Origin: an uncultured Gemmatimonadaceae bacterium
Lineage (GTDB): Bacteria > Gemmatimonadota > Gemmatimonadetes > Gemmatimonadales > Gemmatimonadaceae
Direction: 5' to 3'
Assembly: GCA_963781585.1 (NCBI GenBank)
Contig: CAWAGQ010000004.1
Coordinates: 192,001-256,000, forward strand
DNA: 64,000 bases
A model generated the notes under the pieces. That model worked only from the letters and a program-made list of their open reading frames with translations, did no database searches and was not told the DNA's origin. Every line of letters begins with the position of its first letter. Positions within the stretch are counted from its first letter, which is position 1. The translations under genes were made by a program, and so were the position numbers. Shown here one piece after another: positions 17,035 to 34,653 of the stretch.

Positions 17035-18417
17035 TCAACCGTCGCCCAGGGTGTCGCGCACCACCCGCTCGAAGGCCGCATCTTCCGATTCCGCTATCGA
17101 GCGCAGGTCGAGCAGGAAGCGGCCGTCGGCGATGCGACCGATGACAGGGATGCGCGCCGCACGCAGGCGCGCCTCCAGCAACGATGGATCTCCCGGTGGC
17201 GAGACCGCGCACGATGGCAATCGGGCCGTGGGGAAGGCGCCCCCGCCCACGCTTCCCTCGGAGCTGACGATCTCACACTCTACGCCGCGCTCTCGCAGGG
17301 TGGCGACCAGGCGCTCCGCCCGTTCGCGCACGCGATTTACGGGCGCCGTGATCATGGCCAGGGCCGGAATCTCGCGTACCGCGCGCTCGGGATCGCGGTA
17401 GAGCGCCAGCGTGGATTCCAGCGCCGCCAGCGTCAGCTTGTCGACGCGCAGCGCGCGCGCCAGCGGATTGCGGCGACACCGCTCGACGATCTCATGTGCC
17501 CCGACGATGATTCCGGCCTGTGGTCCGCCGAGGAGTTTGTCGCCGCTCATGCAGACCAGAGTGGCGCCATCGGACACTGCCTGATGGGCCGTGGGTTCAC
17601 CGGTGAGCCCGAATCGCTCGAGCGATACCAGCAATCCGCTTCCCAGATCGAACAGCAGCGGCACTCCGGCTTCGTCGGCGATCGGGCGCAGATCCCGCAA
17701 CGACGCTTCGGCGACGAAGCCGCGCACCTCGAAGTTGCTGCGGTGCACCTTCACGATCGCGCCGGTGTCCGCGCCGAGCGCGCGCCGGTAGTCGTCGGCG
17801 TGCGTGCGATTGGTCGTCCCGACTTCGCGCAGGATGGCCCCGCTTCGCGCCATGATGTCGGGCACGCGGAAGCTTCCACCGATCTCGATGAGCTCCCCGC
17901 GCGAGACGATCGCCTCACGGCCGTTCGCCACGGTGTTGAGCGCCAGCACCAGCGCCGCGGCGCCATTGTTGACGACCATGGCGTCTTCAGCGCCCGTCAG
18001 TTCGCACAACAGCGCGGCACAGTGCACGTAGCGGGAGCCTCGTTCCCCACGCGACAGATCGTACTCGAGGTTGTTGGCGCCGCCCGCGGTCCGGGCGATG
18101 GCCTCCAGCGCCGCGGGTGCCAACGGCGCCCGACCGAGGTTGGTGTGCAGCACCACTCCGGTCGCGTTGAACACCGGCCGCAACGACGGGCGCTGGCGAA
18201 GCGCCACTTCAGCGCTGATGGCGGCCACCCAGTCGCGCTCGCTCATCCCGGTGGTCGTGGTGGCAACGCGCGGATCTCCCGTGGTGCGAACGCGATCGAC
18301 CACGGCGCGCACCGCGTCGACGACGAGGGAGCGAGGCGCCTGCGCGAGAAGCGTCCGCACGCCCGACAGCTCGAGCAGGGCCGCCACCGCGGGTAGCGTG
18401 CTCCGCCGGTCACCCAC
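17035..18417 (-). CDS. selA: L-seryl-tRNA(Sec) selenium transferase
   Basis: NATGVVLHTNLGRA, NLEYDL, SRGELIEIGGSFR, EVGTTNRT, SGDKLLGGPQAG, RALRVDK. Confidence 0.95.
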   Translation of the reverse strand: MGDRRSTLPAVAALLELSGVRTLLAQAPRSLVVDAVRAVVDRVRTTGDPRVATTTTGMSERDWVAAISAEVALRQRPSLRPVFNATGVVLHTNLGRAPLAPAALEAIARTAGGANNLEYDLSRGERGSRYVHCAALLCELTGAEDAMVVNNGAAALVLALNTVANGREAIVSRGELIEIGGSFRVPDIMARSGAILREVGTTNRTHADDYRRALGADTGAIVKVHRSNFEVRGFVAEASLRDLRPIADEAGVPLLFDLGSGLLVSLERFGLTGEPTAHQAVSDGATLVCMSGDKLLGGPQAGIIVGAHEIVERCRRNPLARALRVDKLTLAALESTLALYRDPERAVREIPALAMITAPVNRVRERAERLVATLRERGVECEIVSSEGSVGGGAFPTARLPSCAVSPPGDPSLLEARLRAARIPVIGRIADGRFLLDLRSIAESEDAAFERVVRDTLGDG

Positions 18418-19678
18418 GCGGCCGCCCGGTGAGGAGCCGGCGCACCGAAGAGGTGTCCTTCGGTGGTGGGGGTCGCGGGGTGTTGAACACCCGATCGGTG
18501 GAGCGCAAGGCGCCGGTAATGCTGCGGAGGTCTGCCGCGTGCAGCCGGAGGCTGCTGCCTGGCGGAAGGGCACGCTGGAGCTGGATCACCAGCTCGGTAC
18601 TGGGGATCGGTGCGACCGGTCTGGGGGCAACGCGATGTGTTGTGTCGGCCGACGATACTTGCGGCGGCGCGGTGGCAACGCCGGGGCGTCGGCCGGTCGG
18701 ACGTGACGGCGGAGCGGCACCGGCGCGGGCGCTGTCGGCCGCACGGATCGAATCCCGCCGGGCGGCGGCCTGCACCGAATCCTGAACGTGCTTTGCGACG
18801 ATGGAGTCGGCGATGTGTCGCTCCACTTCGCGTGCGGTGAGGACGGTGTCGATGGCGAGCTGCGTGCTGTCGCTGGTCTTGAGGGTGAACAGCGAGGACG
18901 TGAGCGTGAATGCCGTGTCCAGTGCGCGATCGAGCGTCACGCGCAAGGTCAGGCTGTCCTTGACCGTCACGCTGGCGATACCGGGCCCCAGTGAGTCACG
19001 CAGGATGGCGAGCATTTCGCGTCGCACCGAGTCCTGCAGCGGGATCGTCACGGAATCGAACAGTTCGCGCGGGTCGAGAAGCCGATTATGATTCTGGTCG
19101 ACGATCGCGCGGACGAGGTAACTGCCAGCCGGCATGTTGTCGATCCGGAACGCGCCAAGGGAATCACTGGTCGCCGAGTATCGCGTGCTGTCGGGCAGGA
19201 CGAGCGCTTCCACATAGGCCTGCGGCGCCGGTCGCGCGGCGAGCCAATCGAATACGCGCCCTGCGATCACGCCGTGGGCGATCTCCGCGCCGGTGGAGAA
19301 GACGATTACACGGCCGACCGAATCGACGTTGTTGGAGAGGTCGCTGACACCCGGTCGCATGCGAACGGTGTAGGTCGTGTTCCGCCGGAATCCGCCGTCG
19401 ATGGTGACGACGACGCGCGACCGGTGCCAGGACACCCTCGGCGTCCCGTCGCTGGGCGAGACGAGAAAAAGGTCGGCGAGGGACGTCGCGCCACGGGGGC
19501 GTTCGCTGACGACTTCGTTGAAGTCGAAGCTCACGCCTCCGGTGCGGACGTCCCGCGAGTTGCTGTCGGGGCGCACCCGGACCACCTTCGGCGGCGTGAC
19601 ATCGGTCGGTCCACCGGGCGGGACGCCGGGTTGGTAGCAGGCGGCGGTCACGGCCGCGATCGGAATCAGCCACCGCAC
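18410..19678 (-). CDS. Ig-like (Big_5-type) domain lipoprotein
   Basis: Lipobox-like TAAC, PPGGP.D.TPP.V, F.F.E.V, RNTTYTV; overlaps the valS stop and the selA start. Confidence 0.8.
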   Translation of the reverse strand: MRWLIPIAAVTAACYQPGVPPGGPTDVTPPKVVRVRPDSNSRDVRTGGVSFDFNEVVSERPRGATSLADLFLVSPSDGTPRVSWHRSRVVVTIDGGFRRNTTYTVRMRPGVSDLSNNVDSVGRVIVFSTGAEIAHGVIAGRVFDWLAARPAPQAYVEALVLPDSTRYSATSDSLGAFRIDNMPAGSYLVRAIVDQNHNRLLDPRELFDSVTIPLQDSVRREMLAILRDSLGPGIASVTVKDSLTLRVTLDRALDTAFTLTSSLFTLKTSDSTQLAIDTVLTAREVERHIADSIVAKHVQDSVQAAARRDSIRAADSARAGAAPPSRPTGRRPGVATAPPQVSSADTTHRVAPRPVAPIPSTELVIQLQRALPPGSSLRLHAADLRSITGALRSTDRVFNTPRPPPPKDTSSVRRLLTGRPRG

Positions 19679-25445: not shown

Positions 25446-25608
25446 TTTCTGCGCCATGGTCGCGGCCACGTCAGGCAGAGCTGGTGAATCCCGTCCTGCT
25501 GGTGGAAGGTCGAGGCGATCGCGGTCTTCCCGCCTCGCCAGGCCACGGTACACCTTTGACGCCCGCGCGCTGTCCAAGGGCCGTGACCCGTTCCCGATCC
25601 CATCACAC

Positions 25609-27555
25609 ATGACCGCCTTGCACCGGCGCCGCCCGCTCGCCCTGGCCGGCGCGCTCATCCTGGTGGGCGGCTGCATCCAGCCGCTGCGCCTGGCCAGGGA
25701 CGATTCGCCCGTTGTTCTGGCGCACCAGCTGCTGAACGCGCCGGATCCCAGCGCGCACGGCCAATACCGCGTTCGCACCCTGTACTACGGCAGCGGCACG
25801 GACAAACGTCGCCCCGAATACCGCGACTCGGTGACGCTGAAAACACACAGCGTGGACGGGAGCAAGCTCGCGGAAGCGCCGAGTCCGGCCGCCGGCAAGG
25901 ACCGCGCGAAGTACTGGGGGTTCGACTTCAAGAAAATGCCGGTGAACGGGAGAGTCTGGTATCCGGATGGGAACGGGCCGTTCCCGCTGGTGCTGATCGT
26001 GCACGGCAACCACAACATGAAGGACTACTCCGACCCGGGTTACGGGTACCTGGGCGAGCTGCTGGCGTCGCGCGGTTTCATCCTGGCGTCGGTGGACGAG
26101 AATTTTCTCAACGGCAATATCCGCGGAGAGAACGACGCACGCGGGTGGATGCTGCTCCAGCACCTCAAGGCATGGCGGGGGTTCAACGATTCCGCGACGT
26201 CTCCGCTCGCGGGGAAGATCGACATGCACCGGATCGCGCTCATGGGCCATTCGCGGGGCGGGGAAGCGATCGCCGTGGCCGGCGCGTTCAACCGGCTGAC
26301 GCACTACCCCGATGACGCGACGATCAAGTTCGATTTCGGATTCGACATCCAGTCGCTGGTGGCGATCGCGCCGGTCGACGGACAGTACCGGCCTTCCGAC
26401 AAGCCGACCCCGCTTGCCGACTACAACTACTTCCTGATCCACGGCTCGCACGACGGCGATGTGTCCACCTTCAGCGGCCTGACCCAGTACGAGCGCATCC
26501 GGTTCACCGACGGGCAGCCGCGCTTCAAGGCGGCGATCTGGGTGTACCGCGCCAACCACGGGCAGTGGAACACCGTGTGGGGAAACAAGGACAACGGACC
26601 ACGCAGCGGCCGGGTGCTCGATCTCCGCGGACTCCTGCCGCCGGAGGATCAGCGTCGCTTTGCCGAGGTGTACATCACGGCCTTTCTCGAGGCGACCCTG
26701 AACGGACGCCACGAGTACCTGCCCATGTTCCGCGACCACCGGGTGGTGGGGCATTGGCTGCCGAAGACGATGTACGTGACCCGGTTTCAGGAGAGCGGGT
26801 TTCACGCCGCGGCCGACTACGAAGAAGACATCGACGTCACCACCGGAAGCGCCCCCGGCATCGTACTGTCCGGGGACTCGCTTTCGACCTGGAAGGAGGC
26901 GGCGGTGCCGTTCCGGTCGCGGAACAGCAACATGGCGCACGACGCGGTGTGGCTCGGCTGGAACAACCACATTGCCGGCGATGACACCACCAGGATGGGG
27001 CGCCCCGCCTCATACGCGCTCACGTTAGGCGATTCGATCCGGAGTGCGTGGCAGGTCGGGACGCGCAGTGAGCTCGTGTTCTCGCTCCGGCCTACCGATG
27101 CCCGACCGGGTCCCCGGTCACCGGCTCGCGACTCGACGAAGAAGGACTCCGTCAAGGCCAAACCGGCCCCGAAGCGCGCTGCACCGCGCAAGCCAGCCGC
27201 CGCCGATTCCACGCCGTTCGATCTCAGCGTGGAAGTGGCCGACGCCGCCGGGCACGCGGCCCGCCTCCCGCTGAGCCGGTACGGCGCCGTGCGCCGTCCC
27301 CTCGACGCGTACGTGTACCTGCGAAGCGGTCGGGACAAGCAGCGATTCGCCAGTCTCGCCGAAATGGTCCTCCAGACCTACGTCATTCCACTGGCCGATT
27401 TCCACGAGGCCGATTCCGCACTCGACCTGAGCTCGGTGAAGACGGTCCGGTTCGTCTTCGATCGCACGCCGGTTGGAACCGTGGTCCTCGACAACGTGGG
27501 CTTCTCGAACATGAGTCCGGATTTCCTGCTCGCCGCAGACGGACGGCCCCAATGA
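25609..27555 (+). CDS. Alpha/beta-hydrolase (chlorophyllase-like) lipoprotein
   Basis: Lipobox LVGGC, PLVLIVHGNH, GHSRGG nucleophile elbow, HG..DGDV, ANHGQWN. Confidence 0.85.
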   Translation: MTALHRRRPLALAGALILVGGCIQPLRLARDDSPVVLAHQLLNAPDPSAHGQYRVRTLYYGSGTDKRRPEYRDSVTLKTHSVDGSKLAEAPSPAAGKDRAKYWGFDFKKMPVNGRVWYPDGNGPFPLVLIVHGNHNMKDYSDPGYGYLGELLASRGFILASVDENFLNGNIRGENDARGWMLLQHLKAWRGFNDSATSPLAGKIDMHRIALMGHSRGGEAIAVAGAFNRLTHYPDDATIKFDFGFDIQSLVAIAPVDGQYRPSDKPTPLADYNYFLIHGSHDGDVSTFSGLTQYERIRFTDGQPRFKAAIWVYRANHGQWNTVWGNKDNGPRSGRVLDLRGLLPPEDQRRFAEVYITAFLEATLNGRHEYLPMFRDHRVVGHWLPKTMYVTRFQESGFHAAADYEEDIDVTTGSAPGIVLSGDSLSTWKEAAVPFRSRNSNMAHDAVWLGWNNHIAGDDTTRMGRPASYALTLGDSIRSAWQVGTRSELVFSLRPTDARPGPRSPARDSTKKDSVKAKPAPKRAAPRKPAAADSTPFDLSVEVADAAGHAARLPLSRYGAVRRPLDAYVYLRSGRDKQRFASLAEMVLQTYVIPLADFHEADSALDLSSVKTVRFVFDRTPVGTVVLDNVGFSNMSPDFLLAADGRPQ

Positions 27556-28490
27556 GCCGCTTCGCGAGAGATGCGGTCCTCGCCGCCGGGCTGCTGGCCG
27601 TCTCCGCGGTAGCGGCGCGCGCCCAGCGCGACCGCTACGCGCCCATCGTGCTCCAGCTTCCAGCGTCGGCGCGCGCCACGGGTCTGGGCGGCGCGACCGT
27701 GGCCCTGCGGGATATCGAAAGCCTGTTCGCGAATCCCGCTCTGGCCGGCACCCTCACGGGGGTCGCGGTGTCGGGCGAACAGTTCCGGGCCAGCCGCCAG
27801 GGGACGATCGCCGCCAGCGTGTCGTTAGGCACCCTCGGGGTGTCGGTCGGCGCCCAGTTCTTCGACTTCGGGGTTTCGCAGGGTGCAGCCGACGGCTTCC
27901 CGACGGCGCGGCAGTGGCCCGCACCCAGTACCGTGATCGACGAGCGCGCGGCCGCGGCAGCCTCGAGTTTCTCCGGCGCCATCGCCCTCGCCGCGGCGTT
28001 CAAGGGCTACCGCTTCGGTCTTGCGGCGAAGTACATCGATGAGCGGCTCGGTGTGCGCCGCGCGGAAAGACCGGCGTTCGACCTCGGCATCGCTCGCGAT
28101 CGGGGGAGGGTGACAGTGGGCTTGAGCGTGCAGAACATCGGCCCCACCGTCGACTTCGCACCTCTGCGCAGTGCGCAGCTGCCGTTGCGCGCTACGCTGG
28201 GCATGGCGGCGTTCGGTCTCACCGAGGGCCCACTCGATCTCGGGCTTTCGGCGGCCGTCACGGTCCGACGTGACGGGTATGTCGCGCCCGCGGTGGGCAT
28301 GGAGTGGTCGTACTGGCCGCTCGAAGGGTACACCTTCGCGGTGCGCGCCGGCGTCCGCAGGCCGGAGCTGCGCGAACAACGGCCGCTGACGGCCGGCGCG
28401 TCATTCACGCTCGATCGGATCTCGGTGGACTACGCGTTCGAGCAGATGCGTCACGGCGCAGGACACCGGATCGGTCTGAGACTGCGCTAG
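27552..28490 (+). CDS. PorV/PorQ (FadL-like) outer-membrane barrel protein
   Basis: Signal peptide, LPASARATGLGGA, ANPA, DYAF..., HRIGL end; ATGA overlap with the hydrolase gene. Confidence 0.7.
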   Translation: MSRFARDAVLAAGLLAVSAVAARAQRDRYAPIVLQLPASARATGLGGATVALRDIESLFANPALAGTLTGVAVSGEQFRASRQGTIAASVSLGTLGVSVGAQFFDFGVSQGAADGFPTARQWPAPSTVIDERAAAAASSFSGAIALAAAFKGYRFGLAAKYIDERLGVRRAERPAFDLGIARDRGRVTVGLSVQNIGPTVDFAPLRSAQLPLRATLGMAAFGLTEGPLDLGLSAAVTVRRDGYVAPAVGMEWSYWPLEGYTFAVRAGVRRPELREQRPLTAGASFTLDRISVDYAFEQMRHGAGHRIGLRLR

Positions 28491-28805
28491 CGGCGCGACT
28501 CTCCGGCGCCGGGTTGATTCGACCGGGCCGGCCGGCCCCCACCGAAGATGTGACCTTCTTGCAGTTCGGTTTTTGTCGCCGCGCTGCAACGAATCAGCGA
28601 TCTGTCCGCGCCTCGCGCGACAGCTGCGCACCGGACCAGGGGCGCCCCTCTCCCCGCATCGCATCTGACTGTCGCGCAACGACTTCAGCATCAATTCCGA
28701 CAACAGGTCTGGAGATTGCGTTATTCCCCGCACAACTCGGGCGGTGGAGGGGTCGCCGGTGCGCCGGCGACCGCGGGTACGGGGTCACCTCGGACTCTCA
28801 CACTC

Positions 28806-29381
28806 ATGAAAACAAGGAAACTCTGGCGTTCACTGCGGGCCGTGCTGGCGATCGTCGGCATTGCCGGCTGCGCATCGGATCCGACGTCGCCTGCTCCTGT
28901 TTCCGGGGCTTCCCCGAATCTCGTGGGGGGACTGCTGGGAAGCCTGACGACTGTCAACGCACTCACGCGCATCACGCCGCTCAACAAGGACGTCTCCGTC
29001 TCGGCGGTGATCGGGAAGGCAGGCGGGACCATCCGGATCCCCGAAGCGGGCTTCACTCTTACCGTACCGAAGAACGCGGTGAAGTCGCCGACCACGTTCA
29101 CCGTCACCGCGGTGAAGGGAAAGCTGGTTGCGTACGAATTCGAGCCGCACGGAACGCAGTTCTCGCACAAGCCGGTTGCGGAGCAGGACCTCCGCGTCAC
29201 GAACTGGAACGGACGCCTGCTGCCGCTGCTCAAGGCGGCGTACTTTGCGGACCGGAGCCAGCTCGACCTGAAAAACCTCACGGCTGAGGTCTCGGAGATC
29301 ATCTCCGGGCTCCTCCAGCCGCTCACCGGGAAGTTCCGGTGGGACATTCCGCACTATTCAGGATACATCGTCTGCTGGTAG
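28806..29381 (+). CDS. Hypothetical lipoprotein with ZU5-like beta domain and C-terminal HYS motif
   Basis: Lipobox IAGC; IGKAGGTI.IPEAGFTLTVPKNAV; FEPHG.QF..PV; ends IPHYSGYIVCW. Confidence 0.75.
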   Translation: MKTRKLWRSLRAVLAIVGIAGCASDPTSPAPVSGASPNLVGGLLGSLTTVNALTRITPLNKDVSVSAVIGKAGGTIRIPEAGFTLTVPKNAVKSPTTFTVTAVKGKLVAYEFEPHGTQFSHKPVAEQDLRVTNWNGRLLPLLKAAYFADRSQLDLKNLTAEVSEIISGLLQPLTGKFRWDIPHYSGYIVCW

Positions 29382-29542
29382 GTTGCCGGACAGTCTCGAA
29401 CCCCACGCCCCGCTAAGCAGTGGGCCGTGAGGGCGCAGGGTGGGGAAGCGCGATCATGGCGTTTCCCCACCCTTGTTTGCCTGGGATGGAAACGGCTGAG
29501 CGGTCGCGCTCGTCGAGTTGGGAGGCTCGCGCCCCAGGCCAA

Positions 29543-31168
29543 ATGCCCCGCCCATCCCATTCGAGCGTCAGAATCGACGATCCGTTCCCGAGCGCGCGCG
29601 GCGGCGACCCCGCGGCGGCGCTGGTGCGCGCCGCGCAGGCCGAGCGGGACGGCCAGCTCGCCGTCGCCCGCAACCTGTATGAGCAGTGCGTCTGGTCGCA
29701 CGCGCGCACGCTGTCGCCGGCGCAGATCGGCGCGTGCCTGATCGGCATTGCCCGCACCTATCATCTCGACGGTGACTCCGAGGCGGCGCTCGATGTGCTC
29801 GAGGCGGCGTTCGCGCTCGCATCGGCGCAGGGAGACGACGCGTCGCTCGGAGCCGCCCTCAATTGCCAGGCGGTGGTGCGTTGGCACCGCGGACAGCTCG
29901 ACGAGGCCGAGCGGCTCTATCTCGAGGCCCAGGACTGTGGCGCGCGAATCGGCGATCGCCGCCTGGTCGCCATGACGGCACAGAACCGCGGTATCATCGC
30001 GAACGTGCGTGGTGAGCTGTCGGTCGCCTTGAACCACTATCGCGAGGCCCTGGTGGCTTTCCGCGCCCTCGGCCTCACCCGCGAGGTGTGCAACGTCCTC
30101 GGCAATCTCGGGATGCTCCACACGGATCTGGAGCAATGGGACGATGCCGAGCGGGCCTTCGGCGAGGCGCGGGGGCTGGCGGAGTCGGCAGCCGACGCGC
30201 ACACCCGCGTGCTGATCGAAGTCAACATCGCCGAGCTGGCCATCGCGCGCGCCGAGTTCGATCGGGCCCGGGTCATCAGCGAGCAGGCGTTGCGCCTGGC
30301 GCACACGCTCGGCGACGCCAGCGCCGAGGCCGAGTTGCGGAAGCATCTGGGAGTGGTGTGCCGCGAGACGGGTCACTACGAAGACGCCGACCATCATTTC
30401 GCCATCGGCGAGTCGCTCGCCGAGCGCCGCCAGAACCTGCTGCTCCTGGCGGAACTGGCTCGCGAGCGGGCAGATCTGCATTCCCGCCTGGGGCGCTTCC
30501 GCGAGACGGTACGGTGTCTCAATCGCTCCCATCAGTTGTTCTCCGAGCTGCGCGCGCGGCGCGACATCGCCGACATCGATCGCCGTCACCTGCGCATCGA
30601 GAGCACGTTCCTCGACGTTGTGCGACAGTGGGGTGAGTCGATCGAGTCCAAGGATGCGTACACGCAGGGCCACTGTCTTCGTGTGGCCGATCTGTCCTGC
30701 GCGATCGCGCGTCGCGTTGGCGTGGACGACCGCCGGCTGTTCTGGTTTCGCGTGGGCGCGCTGCTCCACGATGTCGGGAAGATTGCCGTGCCGGCCGAGG
30801 TGCTGAACAAGCCCGGGCGTCTCACCAGCGAGGAATGGGCGCTGATGCGCTCACATCCCGAAGCCGGCGTGGAACTGCTGCGAGGCATCGACTTTCCGGA
30901 GGATGTCATCCCGATCGTGTTGTCGCACCACGAGCGCTGGGACGGGACCGGGTATCCCCAGGGGCTCGCCGGCGAGCAGATCCACCTGGCGGCGCGGATT
31001 CTCGGCCTGGCGGACGTCTACGATGCGCTCACCACGAATCGGAGCTACAAGCCGGGGATGACCCATGCCGACGCCATGCAGACCATGCGCGACGGGGCCG
31101 GCTCGCACTTCGACCCGGCGTTGTTCTCCGAATTCGAAGCGGTGATGATGACGCTCTCGCCGCGTTAG
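29543..31168 (+). CDS. TPR-repeat plus HD-GYP cyclic-dinucleotide phosphodiesterase (start could be 29456 or 29486)
   Basis: About 7 TPR-like repeats; HCLRV, LHDVGK, HHERWDGTGYP, ADVYDA, RSYK. Confidence 0.9.
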   Translation: MPRPSHSSVRIDDPFPSARGGDPAAALVRAAQAERDGQLAVARNLYEQCVWSHARTLSPAQIGACLIGIARTYHLDGDSEAALDVLEAAFALASAQGDDASLGAALNCQAVVRWHRGQLDEAERLYLEAQDCGARIGDRRLVAMTAQNRGIIANVRGELSVALNHYREALVAFRALGLTREVCNVLGNLGMLHTDLEQWDDAERAFGEARGLAESAADAHTRVLIEVNIAELAIARAEFDRARVISEQALRLAHTLGDASAEAELRKHLGVVCRETGHYEDADHHFAIGESLAERRQNLLLLAELARERADLHSRLGRFRETVRCLNRSHQLFSELRARRDIADIDRRHLRIESTFLDVVRQWGESIESKDAYTQGHCLRVADLSCAIARRVGVDDRRLFWFRVGALLHDVGKIAVPAEVLNKPGRLTSEEWALMRSHPEAGVELLRGIDFPEDVIPIVLSHHERWDGTGYPQGLAGEQIHLAARILGLADVYDALTTNRSYKPGMTHADAMQTMRDGAGSHFDPALFSEFEAVMMTLSPR

Positions 31169-31231
31169 GCAGCGGGCAGGCTCCAGCCTCGACCGGAATC
31201 CCGGGCCCCCACCGGGAATGCCGGCGCCCGC

Positions 31232-32284
31232 TCAGTGCCTGGGGATGGACGGTCTCCAGTTGAATGGCGGACCCTCATTGATTCCGATCAGCGAGACGTC
31301 GATCACAGACTCGAATGTTCCCGCGTCGATGAACTGCTGCATCTGCGCCATGGACTTCTGCATCTGGCCTTCGACCATCTGCTTCTGGCTCGCGTTCAGT
31401 TTCGCCAGCTCCGGCTGCATCGCGTCCCACTGCGCCTTGACCTTTACCATCGACTGTCGGGCCTTGGCCATCTCCTGCCGCCGCTTGGGGTCGGCCGCCA
31501 TCGCCTCGAGCATTCCCGACATCCGCATCACCAGGTGCTGGGGCTGATACATCGTCGCGACGTGGTGATAGTCCTTCTGCTGCAGTTCCAGCTCCACCGG
31601 AGTCGTCTTGCCGTTCATCTGCAGGTCACCGGCCACTTTCATTGCCAGCGGCACGTATTCCTCGGCGTCGATCCAGAGATCGAGCTCACGCAGGGTCATC
31701 TTCGCCGCGGATCCCGAATCGGCCAGCACGATGTCCGAGACCTTGTCTGCGATCAGTCGAAACGCGTCCCTGCCATCGATTGTTTCGCGCCCGGCCAGGC
31801 GGGCGCGACTCGTGAAGGCCGCCATTCCGGAGTCGGCCGCGGCCACGTCCGCTCTGCCGTCGTTCTCGTGATAATCCTGGGCCATCCGGAGCATTGCCGA
31901 CATGTCGCTCATCATCGAGTGCATGAAGATGTTGTGAGCTGGACCGATCTCCTTCGCGAATCCCTGATCGAGCAGGTCCAGCGCGTCGGCCATGCCGCCT
32001 GCCACGGCCTCGAGGTCCTGCGGCGTTTCGGAACCGAGCCTGCGCCATTCGGTCATCGGAACCAGCCGGAATCCTGGCTGCCCGTTCACCTCCATTCGTT
32101 CGTAGTACGAGGGCGTCTCTATTCCCTGAACCGTCTGGATGAGCGTGTAGTTGTTCACGCCGTTCCAGCGTTCGATCTGCCTGGTTCGCGCCGTCGCGAG
32201 AATCGACTGTGCGGTCTGCGGACGGGCCTCTTGCGGCAGGAGCATGACCAGGCCCAGGACTGACAGGGCAGTGTGGCGGCGCAT
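31232..32284 (-). CDS. Hypothetical secreted protein, possibly LolA-like fold
   Basis: Signal peptide; GRETIDGRDA, LWID.EEY.P; GGAGG RBS. Confidence 0.7.
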   Translation of the reverse strand: MRRHTALSVLGLVMLLPQEARPQTAQSILATARTRQIERWNGVNNYTLIQTVQGIETPSYYERMEVNGQPGFRLVPMTEWRRLGSETPQDLEAVAGGMADALDLLDQGFAKEIGPAHNIFMHSMMSDMSAMLRMAQDYHENDGRADVAAADSGMAAFTSRARLAGRETIDGRDAFRLIADKVSDIVLADSGSAAKMTLRELDLWIDAEEYVPLAMKVAGDLQMNGKTTPVELELQQKDYHHVATMYQPQHLVMRMSGMLEAMAADPKRRQEMAKARQSMVKVKAQWDAMQPELAKLNASQKQMVEGQMQKSMAQMQQFIDAGTFESVIDVSLIGINEGPPFNWRPSIPRH

Positions 32285-33798: not shown

Positions 33799-34653
33799 AT
33801 GGAGGCACATCCGCCAGACGCCGCCGTCGGTCGCCCGTGGCGTCTGATCATCTTCATGCTCGCCTGCGCCGTCGGCGTACTTGGTCTGCGGCTTCTGTTC
33901 AGTCCACTGGCGGGCAGAGTGGGGCCGATTGGCGGAGTGTCGTTCGTTTCGCACGCCTATGTGTGGACATTGGCCGGAGGGCTGCTGATCGGCCATGCCT
34001 GGACGTTTCGTCTGGTGGAGCCTCGCGGCTGGGGGTACGCGGGGTTGGGGCGACAGGCGATGCGACCTGGAGTGGTGGTGGCGGGACTCATCCTGGGGGC
34101 TGCCGCCATCGGGATTCCATCGCTGACCCTCCTCGGCGTCGGCTGGCTCCAGGTGCAGCACGCCGATGCGGGGAGCCCGGGTTCGGCCGCACTGGGACTG
34201 GCGGCTTTGCTGTTGCCGGCCTCACTCTGGGAAGAACTGCTCATGCGCGGGTTCTTCTTCGCCGTTCTGCGGGAGGTGTGGGGGCCGTGGCGGGCGATAT
34301 TGGCGACCAGCGTCCTCTTTGGCCTGATGCACCTGCAGAACGCCGAGGCCACGTCACAGTCGGTCGCGATGGTGGCGCTGGCAGGGGTCTTTCTCGGCAT
34401 GGTCTTGGTGACCACGGGAAGCCTGTACGCGGCGTGGGCGGCGCATTTCGCGTGGAACTTCGTGCTGGCCGCGGTGCTTCACGCGACGTTGAGCGGACTG
34501 ACGCTGCCGGCGCCCGGCTATCGGATGGTGGATGCGGGGCCTGACTGGGCGACGGGTGGTGCGTGGGGCCCGGAAGGTGGTTTCTTCGCGGCCGCCGGGA
34601 TGGCGGCGGGGATCCTCATCCTGTATCGACTGCGGCTTCGCCGCGGGGAGTGA
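33799..34653 (+). CDS. CPBP (CAAX/Abi) intramembrane metalloprotease
   Basis: EELLMRG, FGLMH, AHFAWN, GGAWGPEG. Confidence 0.92.
   Translation: MEAHPPDAAVGRPWRLIIFMLACAVGVLGLRLLFSPLAGRVGPIGGVSFVSHAYVWTLAGGLLIGHAWTFRLVEPRGWGYAGLGRQAMRPGVVVAGLILGAAAIGIPSLTLLGVGWLQVQHADAGSPGSAALGLAALLLPASLWEELLMRGFFFAVLREVWGPWRAILATSVLFGLMHLQNAEATSQSVAMVALAGVFLGMVLVTTGSLYAAWAAHFAWNFVLAAVLHATLSGLTLPAPGYRMVDAGPDWATGGAWGPEGGFFAAAGMAAGILILYRLRLRRGE

Follow-up and report, generated by a model that had tools for sequence, protein, structure and literature searches.

We have identified, in a 64,000-nucleotide stretch of DNA from an uncultured Gemmatimonadaceae bacterium (assembly GCA_963781585.1, contig CAWAGQ010000004.1, positions 192,001 to 256,000; hereafter the window), a pair of adjacent plus-strand genes, one for a small lipoprotein with a ZU5 fold (28806-29381) and one for a cytoplasmic protein in which an array of tetratricopeptide repeats (TPRs) is fused to an HD-GYP domain (29420-31168). 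Lipoprotein and TPR genes very probably form a conserved signalling module of the Gemmatimonadota that serves one pathway. The pairing of a ZU5 lipoprotein with a TPR enzyme of cyclic di-GMP (c-di-GMP) turnover hints at an undescribed signalling route in this phylum, and we found neither the lipoprotein family nor its TPR/c-di-GMP pairing described in the open PMC and bioRxiv literature. The fold of the lipoprotein, the conservation of its cleavage motif, the linkage of the two genes and their domain content are established by the analysis reported here. A first-pass annotation of the same DNA had gone further, proposing that the lipoprotein cuts itself to free a peptide of seven residues that regulates the phosphodiesterase, in a circuit like those of the RRNPP quorum-sensing receptors.

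The lipoprotein gene, defined by its open reading frame (ORF) and translation and by relatives recovered in homology searches, encodes 191 residues and ends in a TAG stop codon at 29379-29381. Its signal peptide and lipobox (28806-28871), read from the sequence, consist of a K/R-rich N-terminus and a hydrophobic core followed by I19-A20-G21-C22 (28860-28871), with Cys22 as the lipidation site. A word-indexed search at E ≤ 1e-3 returned 78 relatives of 189-242 residues and 32-57% identity; C22 is invariant in their alignment, which places the protein among the bacterial lipoproteins, and a lipobox-like motif was matched by an ad hoc regular expression in 201 of 222 family members. A linker of residues 23-47 (28872-28946), assigned with low confidence, joins the anchor to the domain; the predicted local distance difference test (pLDDT) value is below 50 at residues 20-43. 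The rest of the protein, residues 48-191 (28947-29378), is a ZU5-superfamily β-sandwich, as judged from its AlphaFold2 model, VIA-align, Foldseek and Pfam ZU5. Close to its end lie H183-Y184-S185 (29352-29360), the predicted site of an N-to-O acyl shift with the cut between Y184 and S185, a prediction drawn from conservation and fragment alignments, and the tail SGYIVCW (29358-29378), which by the model and the tail consensus is the last β-strand and the candidate released peptide. The lipobox, the HYS codons and the C-terminal tail are thus positioned as the first-pass annotation had read them.

We modelled the lipoprotein with AlphaFold2 from the 78-row alignment. The model is all-β and has pLDDT values above 90 over most of residues 50-191, with residues 1-43 of low confidence; the last strand comprises residues 186-190 of the tail, at a pLDDT of about 90. 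Compared by VIA-align with 48,161 Protein Data Bank (PDB) representatives, it is closest to the ankyrin ZU5 domains (3ud1_A and 6m3q_E, Z 10.9, root mean square deviation 2.5-2.9, 116 residues aligned) and to UNC5b ZU5 (3g5b_A, Z 9.2), followed by the GAIN domains of CELSR1, CD97 and BAI3 (Z 8.1, 8.0 and 7.9), the FIIND domains of CARD8 (Z 6.3) and NLRP1 (Z 5.8), and Nup98 (Z 4.6). The ZU5 matches exceed the unrelated rows, which lie at Z 5-6, and so identify the fold as ZU5. Foldseek agrees (ZU5-ANK, 3f59, E 5.9e-5). At the sequence level the resemblance is more restricted: Pfam ZU5 (PF00791) is matched on residues 65-103 at 23 bits, where the cut-off is 21 (E 9.9e-5), covering the N-terminal profile positions 1-39 of 97 only. 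The top hit of a profile search against the PDB was UNC5B ZU5 (E 0.014), and NCBIfam holds no model for the 191-residue protein. The structural comparison, which runs from the ZU5 domains to GAIN and FIIND, bears out the ZU5-like signature recognized in the first-pass annotation.

Self-cleavage between Y184 and S185 is likely. The alignments of the model to two cleaved N-terminal fragments, 6x6c_E of NLRP1 (residues 1093-1212) and 5kvm_A of GPR56 (residues 230-382), both stop at model residue 184, so that Y184/S185 takes the P1/P1' position of the cleaved domains. Published accounts describe 6x6c as modelled with ZU5 from Phe1079 to Phe1212 and then UPA from Ser1213, place the GPR56 cut at H381-L382/T383, and report that mutation of the P2 His and the P1' Ser/Thr abolishes GAIN cleavage. 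The corresponding residues of the lipoprotein, H183 and S185, are invariant in the 78-sequence alignment, and the columns of F184, G186 and Y187 are at least 90% conserved. The literature also explains the tight association of the fragments in relatives by insertion of the post-cut strand into the ZU5 domain; by analogy, we infer that the lipoprotein tail is the counterpart of this inserted strand and would be cleaved yet retained. The autoproteolysis motif claimed in the first-pass annotation is accordingly upheld, both by the invariant His and Ser and by the end point of the fragment alignments.

The family is large and the motif is nearly universal within it. An exhaustive HMMER search recovered 982 cluster representatives with a threshold of E ≤ 1e-3, of which 623 reach E ≤ 1e-10. 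H-[FYL]-[ST] occurs within the final 45 residues of 218 of the 222 family proteins that were fetched, as HFS in 216, HLT in one and HYS in one, the window protein, which alone has Y. The tail consensus over the 218 is S-G-Y-[LMIV]-[VIL]-[SA]-[WST]. Carriers with named genomes belong to the Gemmatimonadaceae and other Gemmatimonadota. In an even sample of the phylum the family was matched in at least 93 of 301 genomes (E ≤ 1e-10), a lower bound given that 10 candidates were scored per genome, and one that includes genomes G182 and G057. In the ESM Atlas, the nearest clusters come from Gemmatimonadota and are annotated 'hypothetical protein'; about 50% of their members carry ZU5. The host genome (5.7 Mb) has a single full-length family member. 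It also has two large open frames, of 744 and 808 residues, with only an N-terminal ZU5 motif at profile positions 67-137 (G000:C5:183657-183905 and G000:C8:194791-195030, loci L066 and L067; E 1.5e-5 and 4.7e-5). Proteins of 448-477 residues from Fibrella/Fibrivirga (Bacteroidota) match the first half of the profile and are without the HFS tail (L059:2845-4227, L061:5869-7215, L062:5791-7224).

The partner gene begins after an intergenic gap at 29382-29419, 38 bp to its GTG start and 74 bp to an ATG at 29456, and encodes 582 residues as the longest ORF. Its model has a mean pLDDT of 85.6 and a long helix that joins the TPRs to the HD-GYP domain. Residues 1-61 are disordered in the model and not conserved, and relatives align only from about residue 40-75; the true start is thus uncertain and may be a later ATG, such as that at 29456. 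The protein has no transmembrane segment (maximum Kyte-Doolittle 19-residue mean 1.11), and Pfam recognizes TPR_12 in five stretches and HD_5 with E 1.3e-43. The HD-GYP domain (residues 384-578, 30569-31153), defined by Pfam HD_5, invariant columns and Foldseek, retains H450, D451, H503, H504, G511, Y512 and P513 without exception in 38 TPR-HD-GYP proteins, which identifies it as an intact member of its class. Both observations agree with the first-pass description of a TM-less protein carrying an intact HD-GYP domain. The best Foldseek matches of this part are DvhD (9rbz), PA4781 (4r8z) and 4mcw. Measured against the known HD-GYP phosphodiesterases PA4781, PmGH (4mcw) and DvhD, it has TM-scores by target of 0.79-0.82 and 31-35% identity, and hydrolysis of c-di-GMP is predicted from the sequence; its sensor differs, being a TPR array where theirs is a receiver or GAF domain.

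Ahead of this domain, the protein folds into eight TPRs of 16 helices (residues 64-380, 29609-30559), as given by the AlphaFold2 model, conservation and Foldseek. Around seven Asn-bearing repeats had been counted at first; the number is eight, and the four Asn residues then named are conserved. N148, N189, N229 and N269 form a ladder with one Asn per repeat of about 40 residues; among the 38 proteins, N229 and N269 do not vary, and conservation is at least 90% at N148 and N189. For the TPR region, Foldseek gives its best matches to LGN/Pins structures with bound peptides of NuMA, Inscuteable and Frmpd (E 1e-10). Like LGN/Pins (GPSM2), it is an eight-repeat superhelix of the TPR_12 type with one inner-face Asn per repeat, and TM-scores by target are 0.61-0.75; unlike LGN/Pins, to which it is 19-21% identical, it is bacterial and fused to an enzyme. 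The TPR channel of LGN binds extended peptides. No RRNPP receptor appears among the Foldseek matches listed, which comprise LGN, OGT, KLC and designed TPRs, and neither a helix-turn-helix (HTH) nor a Rap domain was found in the protein with Pfam and NCBIfam. The Asn pattern is an ordinary TPR_12/LGN ladder, compatible with an extended peptide and not specific to RRNPP, and its earlier interpretation as the mark of an RRNPP-type receptor is weakened.

The short gap between the two genes contains no terminator-like site; one was found inside the HD-GYP gene in a scan of 28300-31600. A scan of the same interval for sigma-70-like promoters gave none; these two outcomes say little either way. Among public sequencing runs, no RNA data set was listed as containing this DNA, and one soil-metagenome DNA run shares 0.08 of its words. 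A sigma-54 consensus, allowing at most two mismatches, matched the window 55 times against 63 expected, with no match at 28490-28806.

To place the pair in its genomic context, we surveyed 64 loci from named genomes with flanks of up to 6 kb, in which a hidden Markov model of the family recognized 68 full-length ORFs, 67 of them with H[FY]S. At least 1200 bp of downstream DNA was available for 61 of these ORFs, at 55 loci. A TPR-homologous gene lies on the same strand within 600 bp downstream of 35 of the 61, and a TPR, HD-GYP or GGDEF-STAND-TPR ORF within the locus of 50; counted by locus, a TPR gene follows directly in 32 of 55 and a partner of any type is present in 44 of 55. The loci come from related genomes, and the counts overstate their independence. 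Amid 13 partial matches in the host genome, a single TPR-HD-GYP gene of this type is full-length, and it adjoins the only ZU5 lipoprotein gene. Conserved linkage, on which the first-pass annotation had staked its proposal, therefore holds, with 35 of 61 family genes directly followed by a TPR gene.

The arrangement of the genes varies around this constant association. The closest relatives have the order ZU5, then TPR-HD-GYP. Loci of the L042 type read ZU5, TPR-only, a sigma-54 activator without a receiver, TPR-HD-GYP and SBP_bac_5, and those of the L026 type read TPR-HD-GYP, GGDEF-AAA_16-TPR and ZU5. At L064 the order is PAS-GGDEF-EAL, TPR, five ZU5 genes and TPR-HD-GYP. That the association has outlived several rearrangements argues for selection, despite the relatedness of the loci. 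In related loci, a ZU5 gene and the TPR-only gene next to it are in most cases separated by 5-31 bp. No membrane-spanning stretch was found in the conserved neighbours in these gene orders, from which it follows that any signal must itself cross the inner membrane or act before export.

Four loci (L021-L024) carry two ZU5+TPR pairs in tandem, which we call A-type and B-type. Identity within the A-type is 77-80% for ZU5 and 78-84% for TPR, and within the B-type 62-82% and 71-87%; between the types it falls to about 41% for ZU5 and about 57% for TPR. Across 15 pairs, which are not independent of one another, the divergence of ZU5 and TPR is congruent (r 0.91). The congruent identities within and between types indicate that the ZU5+TPR pair was duplicated and kept as a unit.

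Several further features of these loci were recorded. The Gemmatimonadales locus with five tandem lipoprotein genes (L064:1045-9654) encodes a TPR protein of 442 residues and lipoproteins with the tail S[VR]Y[AS]LC[VI]E. An AAA+/HTH_8-only sigma-54 activator, without receiver or sensor domain, is present in 18 loci (e.g. L042:7678-8766), located between the TPR-only gene and the TPR-HD-GYP gene, which suggests that the TPR-only protein regulates the adjoining activator. Open frames of 1181-1756 residues, in which TPR-HD-GYP runs straight into GGDEF-AAA_16(STAND)-TPR, occur at L018:6730-10284, L029:6578-11848, L032:678-5465, L036:165-4877 and L047:1115-4660, and the nearly identical locus L026 carries two overlapping ORFs instead; the long frames are either giant phosphodiesterase-cyclase fusions or frameshift differences of assembly. 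Three loci (L019:2858-5694, L020:2925-5617, L025:2500-5186) have paired genes for M16 (insulinase-type) peptidases immediately upstream of long-tailed ZU5 lipoproteins, beside a GGDEF-STAND-TPR gene; these lipoproteins have tails of 13-17 residues after the Ser. The N-termini of the L019 peptidases resemble signal peptides and those of L020 and L025, as called, do not, and the pair may provide a step that processes or degrades the tail. Finally, a lipoprotein gene of the SBP_bac_5 type (peptide/nickel-type solute-binding; e.g. L042:10358-11983) is found in 13 loci, after TPR-HD-GYP in 10 and nearby on the opposite strand in 3.

We can envisage how the components of the pair might work together. 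The ZU5 lipoprotein would be exported and lipid-anchored, and would cut itself at Y184/S185 by an N-to-O acyl shift, as GAIN, FIIND/PIDD and Nup98 domains do. SGYIVCW, as the last, buried strand of the sandwich, would stay docked after the cut and be set free only once its holder is unfolded, pulled or degraded, so that the protein would work as a 'tripwire' responding to envelope damage or to proteolysis. Either the peptide once freed or a C-terminal segment containing it would then be the ligand of the Asn-lined channel in the cytoplasmic LGN-like TPR array, which would control the c-di-GMP phosphodiesterase formed by the HD-GYP domain fused to it. Relatives have this kind of TPR either as a separate protein encoded next to the receiver-less sigma-54 activator or joined to a GGDEF-STAND cyclase. 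Since the partners are all cytoplasmic, peptide binding is a property of TPRs, and the cassettes pair the two genes one-to-one, a segment derived from the ZU5 protein is the most economical candidate for the ligand. Whether the TPR ligand is indeed such a segment we consider an even call. That it is specifically the freed tail, re-entering the cytoplasm after release from its unfolded or degraded holder, is the version we favour, and yet it is open to real doubt. Unlikely, in our view, is the most far-reaching form of this proposal, a protease-free peptide signalling system of a diderm, in which a stored strand of 7-8 residues is freed on unfolding or degradation, like the 'functional degradation' of NLRP1 or the shedding of GAIN domains, and read by LGN-like TPRs that set HD-GYP, GGDEF-STAND-TPR and sigma-54 outputs in parallel.

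Direct contact between the two proteins was modelled by co-folding TPR residues 60-385 with the last 30 residues of the lipoprotein (162-191). The complex received weak support, with a score of 0.34 (runs 0.39, 0.24 and 0.34) against 0.02 for the best of three controls, a contact agreement of at least 57% and partner pLDDT values of 45-48; no interface is reported. In the calibration of this score, 116 of 157 solved complexes reached the mark, as did 2 of 215 mismatched pairs, and scores of 0.60 or less comprised 18 of the 157 solved complexes and both of the mismatched pairs that passed. The binding of the tail to the TPRs that the first-pass annotation had in mind thus finds weak support at most, and for a segment longer than the heptapeptide. 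The model shifts the balance slightly towards contact and does not separate a free peptide from the unfolded C-terminus of the precursor.

A number of observations weigh against release of the tail as a signal. By the calibration just described, a complex score this weak misleads in most cases where the guess had not been likely beforehand. Counted from the Ser to the end of the protein, the tail has 7 residues in 33 of the 218 motif-bearing proteins, 8 in 61 and 9-42 in 124, and so is not a uniform short peptide. No segment of the family is more conserved than the tail, which is hydrophobic on both faces, as would be expected of a structural or catalytic strand even without a role in signalling. 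In the tandem loci the tails of co-resident cassettes are near-identical (SGYLVGVD and SGYLVA[VI]D) despite the ~41% identity of the ZU5 proteins, and cannot therefore give cassette-specific signalling. No Opp-type permease was found between 14 and 46 kb of the window, and of the 12 BPD_transp_1 permease matches in the L042 genome none is placed beside SBP_bac_5, as far as contig numbering permits. To these are added the relatedness of the surveyed loci and the 11 of 61 family ORFs for which no TPR-type neighbour was found within the surveyed flanks. A segment so conserved, modelled as a strand of the fold and shared between co-resident cassettes, does not behave as a pheromone-like peptide, and this part of the original proposal is not sustained.

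Much of this evidence would be accommodated if the two proteins were coupled only indirectly. The ZU5 lipoprotein might be an envelope sensor whose transducer is encoded at another site, or else belong to the circuit's output, with the tail and the HFS motif serving only folding or maturation, the TPRs sensing some other cytoplasmic ligand, and the linkage reflecting co-expression. The behaviour of the tail as a buried, highly conserved strand, its likeness between co-resident cassettes, the lack of a linked importer in the window and the 11 of 61 paralogues with no TPR neighbour all suit this explanation, as does the published observation that ZU5, GAIN and FIIND fragments normally remain associated after cleavage. 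Yet no gene order provides a membrane-spanning conserved neighbour to relay the signal, each tandem ZU5 paralogue has its own TPR gene 5-31 bp downstream with which it has diverged congruently, the association persists across three TPR architectures, and the predicted contact of the TPRs with the C-terminus lies above its controls, if weakly (0.34 against 0.02). We regard indirect coupling as possible yet doubtful. The very short gaps and one-to-one cassettes would also suit a TPR protein that binds the lipoprotein precursor before export, for instance by its extended C-terminus, so that export, or a jam in it, would set the phosphodiesterase, cyclase and sigma-54 activator, and self-cleavage would become relevant in the envelope at a later stage. 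In type III secretion, class II chaperones with TPRs turn into co-activators in this way once their substrates have departed. Secretion-coupled control would fit the cytoplasmic location of all TPR partners and the position of the TPR-only gene directly before a receiver-less sigma-54 activator in 18 loci, and the weak complex model accommodates an unfolded C-terminus just as well. It leaves the near-universal HFS motif without a role, however, and is pure analogy, a precedent with a Sec or lipoprotein substrate having been neither found nor searched for; we hold it to be improbable.

The cleavage itself may also be questioned. The closest structural matches of the lipoprotein are the ZU5 domains of ankyrin and UNC5b, which are not known to cleave, and the domain could be a protein-binding module of the envelope like those of ankyrin, UNC5 and ZO-1, in which HYS is kept for structural reasons. 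The Tyr of the window protein, where 216 of 218 relatives have Phe, and the restriction of the Pfam match to the N-terminal half of the domain are in keeping with this. What makes a non-cleaving module quite unlikely, an estimate that overlaps those for the other two alternatives, is that the P2 His and P1' Ser are invariant among proteins otherwise 33-57% identical, that the site superposes on P1 of the cleaved NLRP1 and GPR56 fragments, and that these two residues are the ones whose mutation, according to the literature, stops cleavage in GAIN domains. A conserved Glu, E164, lies 21 residues before S185, and may correspond to NLRP1 E1195, a likeness of sequence position only; the triad of NLRP1 is H1186/E1195/S1213.

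Compared with the self-cleaving domains of animals, namely GAIN/GPS, FIIND (NLRP1/CARD8), PIDD and Nup98, the lipoprotein has in common the β-sandwich (Z 5.8-8.1 to GAIN and FIIND, 4.6 to Nup98), the triplet of His, a hydrophobic residue and Ser/Thr at the turn before the last strand, and a post-site strand that lies within the fold. It differs in being a bacterial lipoprotein that consists of the domain alone and whose cleavage is predicted. The part after the site is here seven residues with a free C-terminus, where theirs is a receptor, a UPA-CARD module or a nucleoporin, and the genes linked to it encode cytoplasmic TPR enzymes that turn over c-di-GMP. For bacteria, Zhang et al. 2012 (PMC3482391, section 8) predicted that polymorphic toxins and large surface proteins contain ZU5 domains acting as autopeptidases. 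As described in that section, these too are exported ZU5 domains with predicted self-processing, located N-terminally in very large RHS, SpvB and adhesin proteins and proposed to free a toxin filament. Unlike them, the present protein has 191 residues, no cargo, and a genomic link to signalling genes.

The proposed kinship with RRNPP systems, which published descriptions place in the Gram-positive Firmicutes, survives in part. An exported precursor encoded next to a cytoplasmic TPR protein, and the notion that the ligand is a short peptide from the C-terminus, are common to both, and the linked pair and the motif stand as first described. However, the RRNPP precursor is a small propeptide cut by extracellular proteases, and here it is a folded lipoprotein predicted to process itself; the RRNPP output is an HTH or Rap domain, and here the partner is an HD-GYP, GGDEF or sigma-54 protein; and the RRNPP peptide has diversified with its receptor, where the tail is conserved. 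The TPR array resembles LGN rather than RRNPP receptors among the matches listed, the host is a diderm, and no importer was found between 14 and 46 kb of the window.

Upstream of the pair, at 25456-28490, lie genes for an α/β-hydrolase of 699 residues, with weak chlorophyllase and PETase-like matches, and for a 312-residue protein of the PorV/PorQ family. We considered the latter, an outer-membrane gene at 27552-28490, as a possible partner and rejected it: it reaches 63.9 of the 90 bits required by NCBIfam, and a homologue is present in only two of the 64 loci (L001 and L003), 4.6 kb away in L001. Homologues of the hydrolase are likewise confined to these two loci. Just past a thiolase gene, 2.6 kb downstream of the pair, is a gene for an Rce1-like CAAX/CPBP intramembrane protease (33799-34653). 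A minus-strand gene for SelA (selenocysteine synthase) at 17035-18573 implies selenoprotein synthesis in the host genome.

If the predicted cleavage is real, the lipoprotein would represent, in a bacterium and in minimal form, the self-cleaving fold known in animals from adhesion GPCRs, NLRP1, CARD8, PIDD and Nup98, and with a domain of 144 residues and a product of seven it would be easy to express and study. We found no membrane transducer encoded in the ZU5/TPR module, and the pairing with TPR and c-di-GMP enzymes points to an input into second-messenger signalling in a poorly studied soil phylum. The system also offers a concrete and cheap test of peptide-TPR signalling of the RRNPP kind outside the Gram-positives. 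Should the tail prove to be only structural, what remains would be a well-defined, uncharacterized family of lipoproteins whose genomic link with c-di-GMP turnover calls for an explanation.

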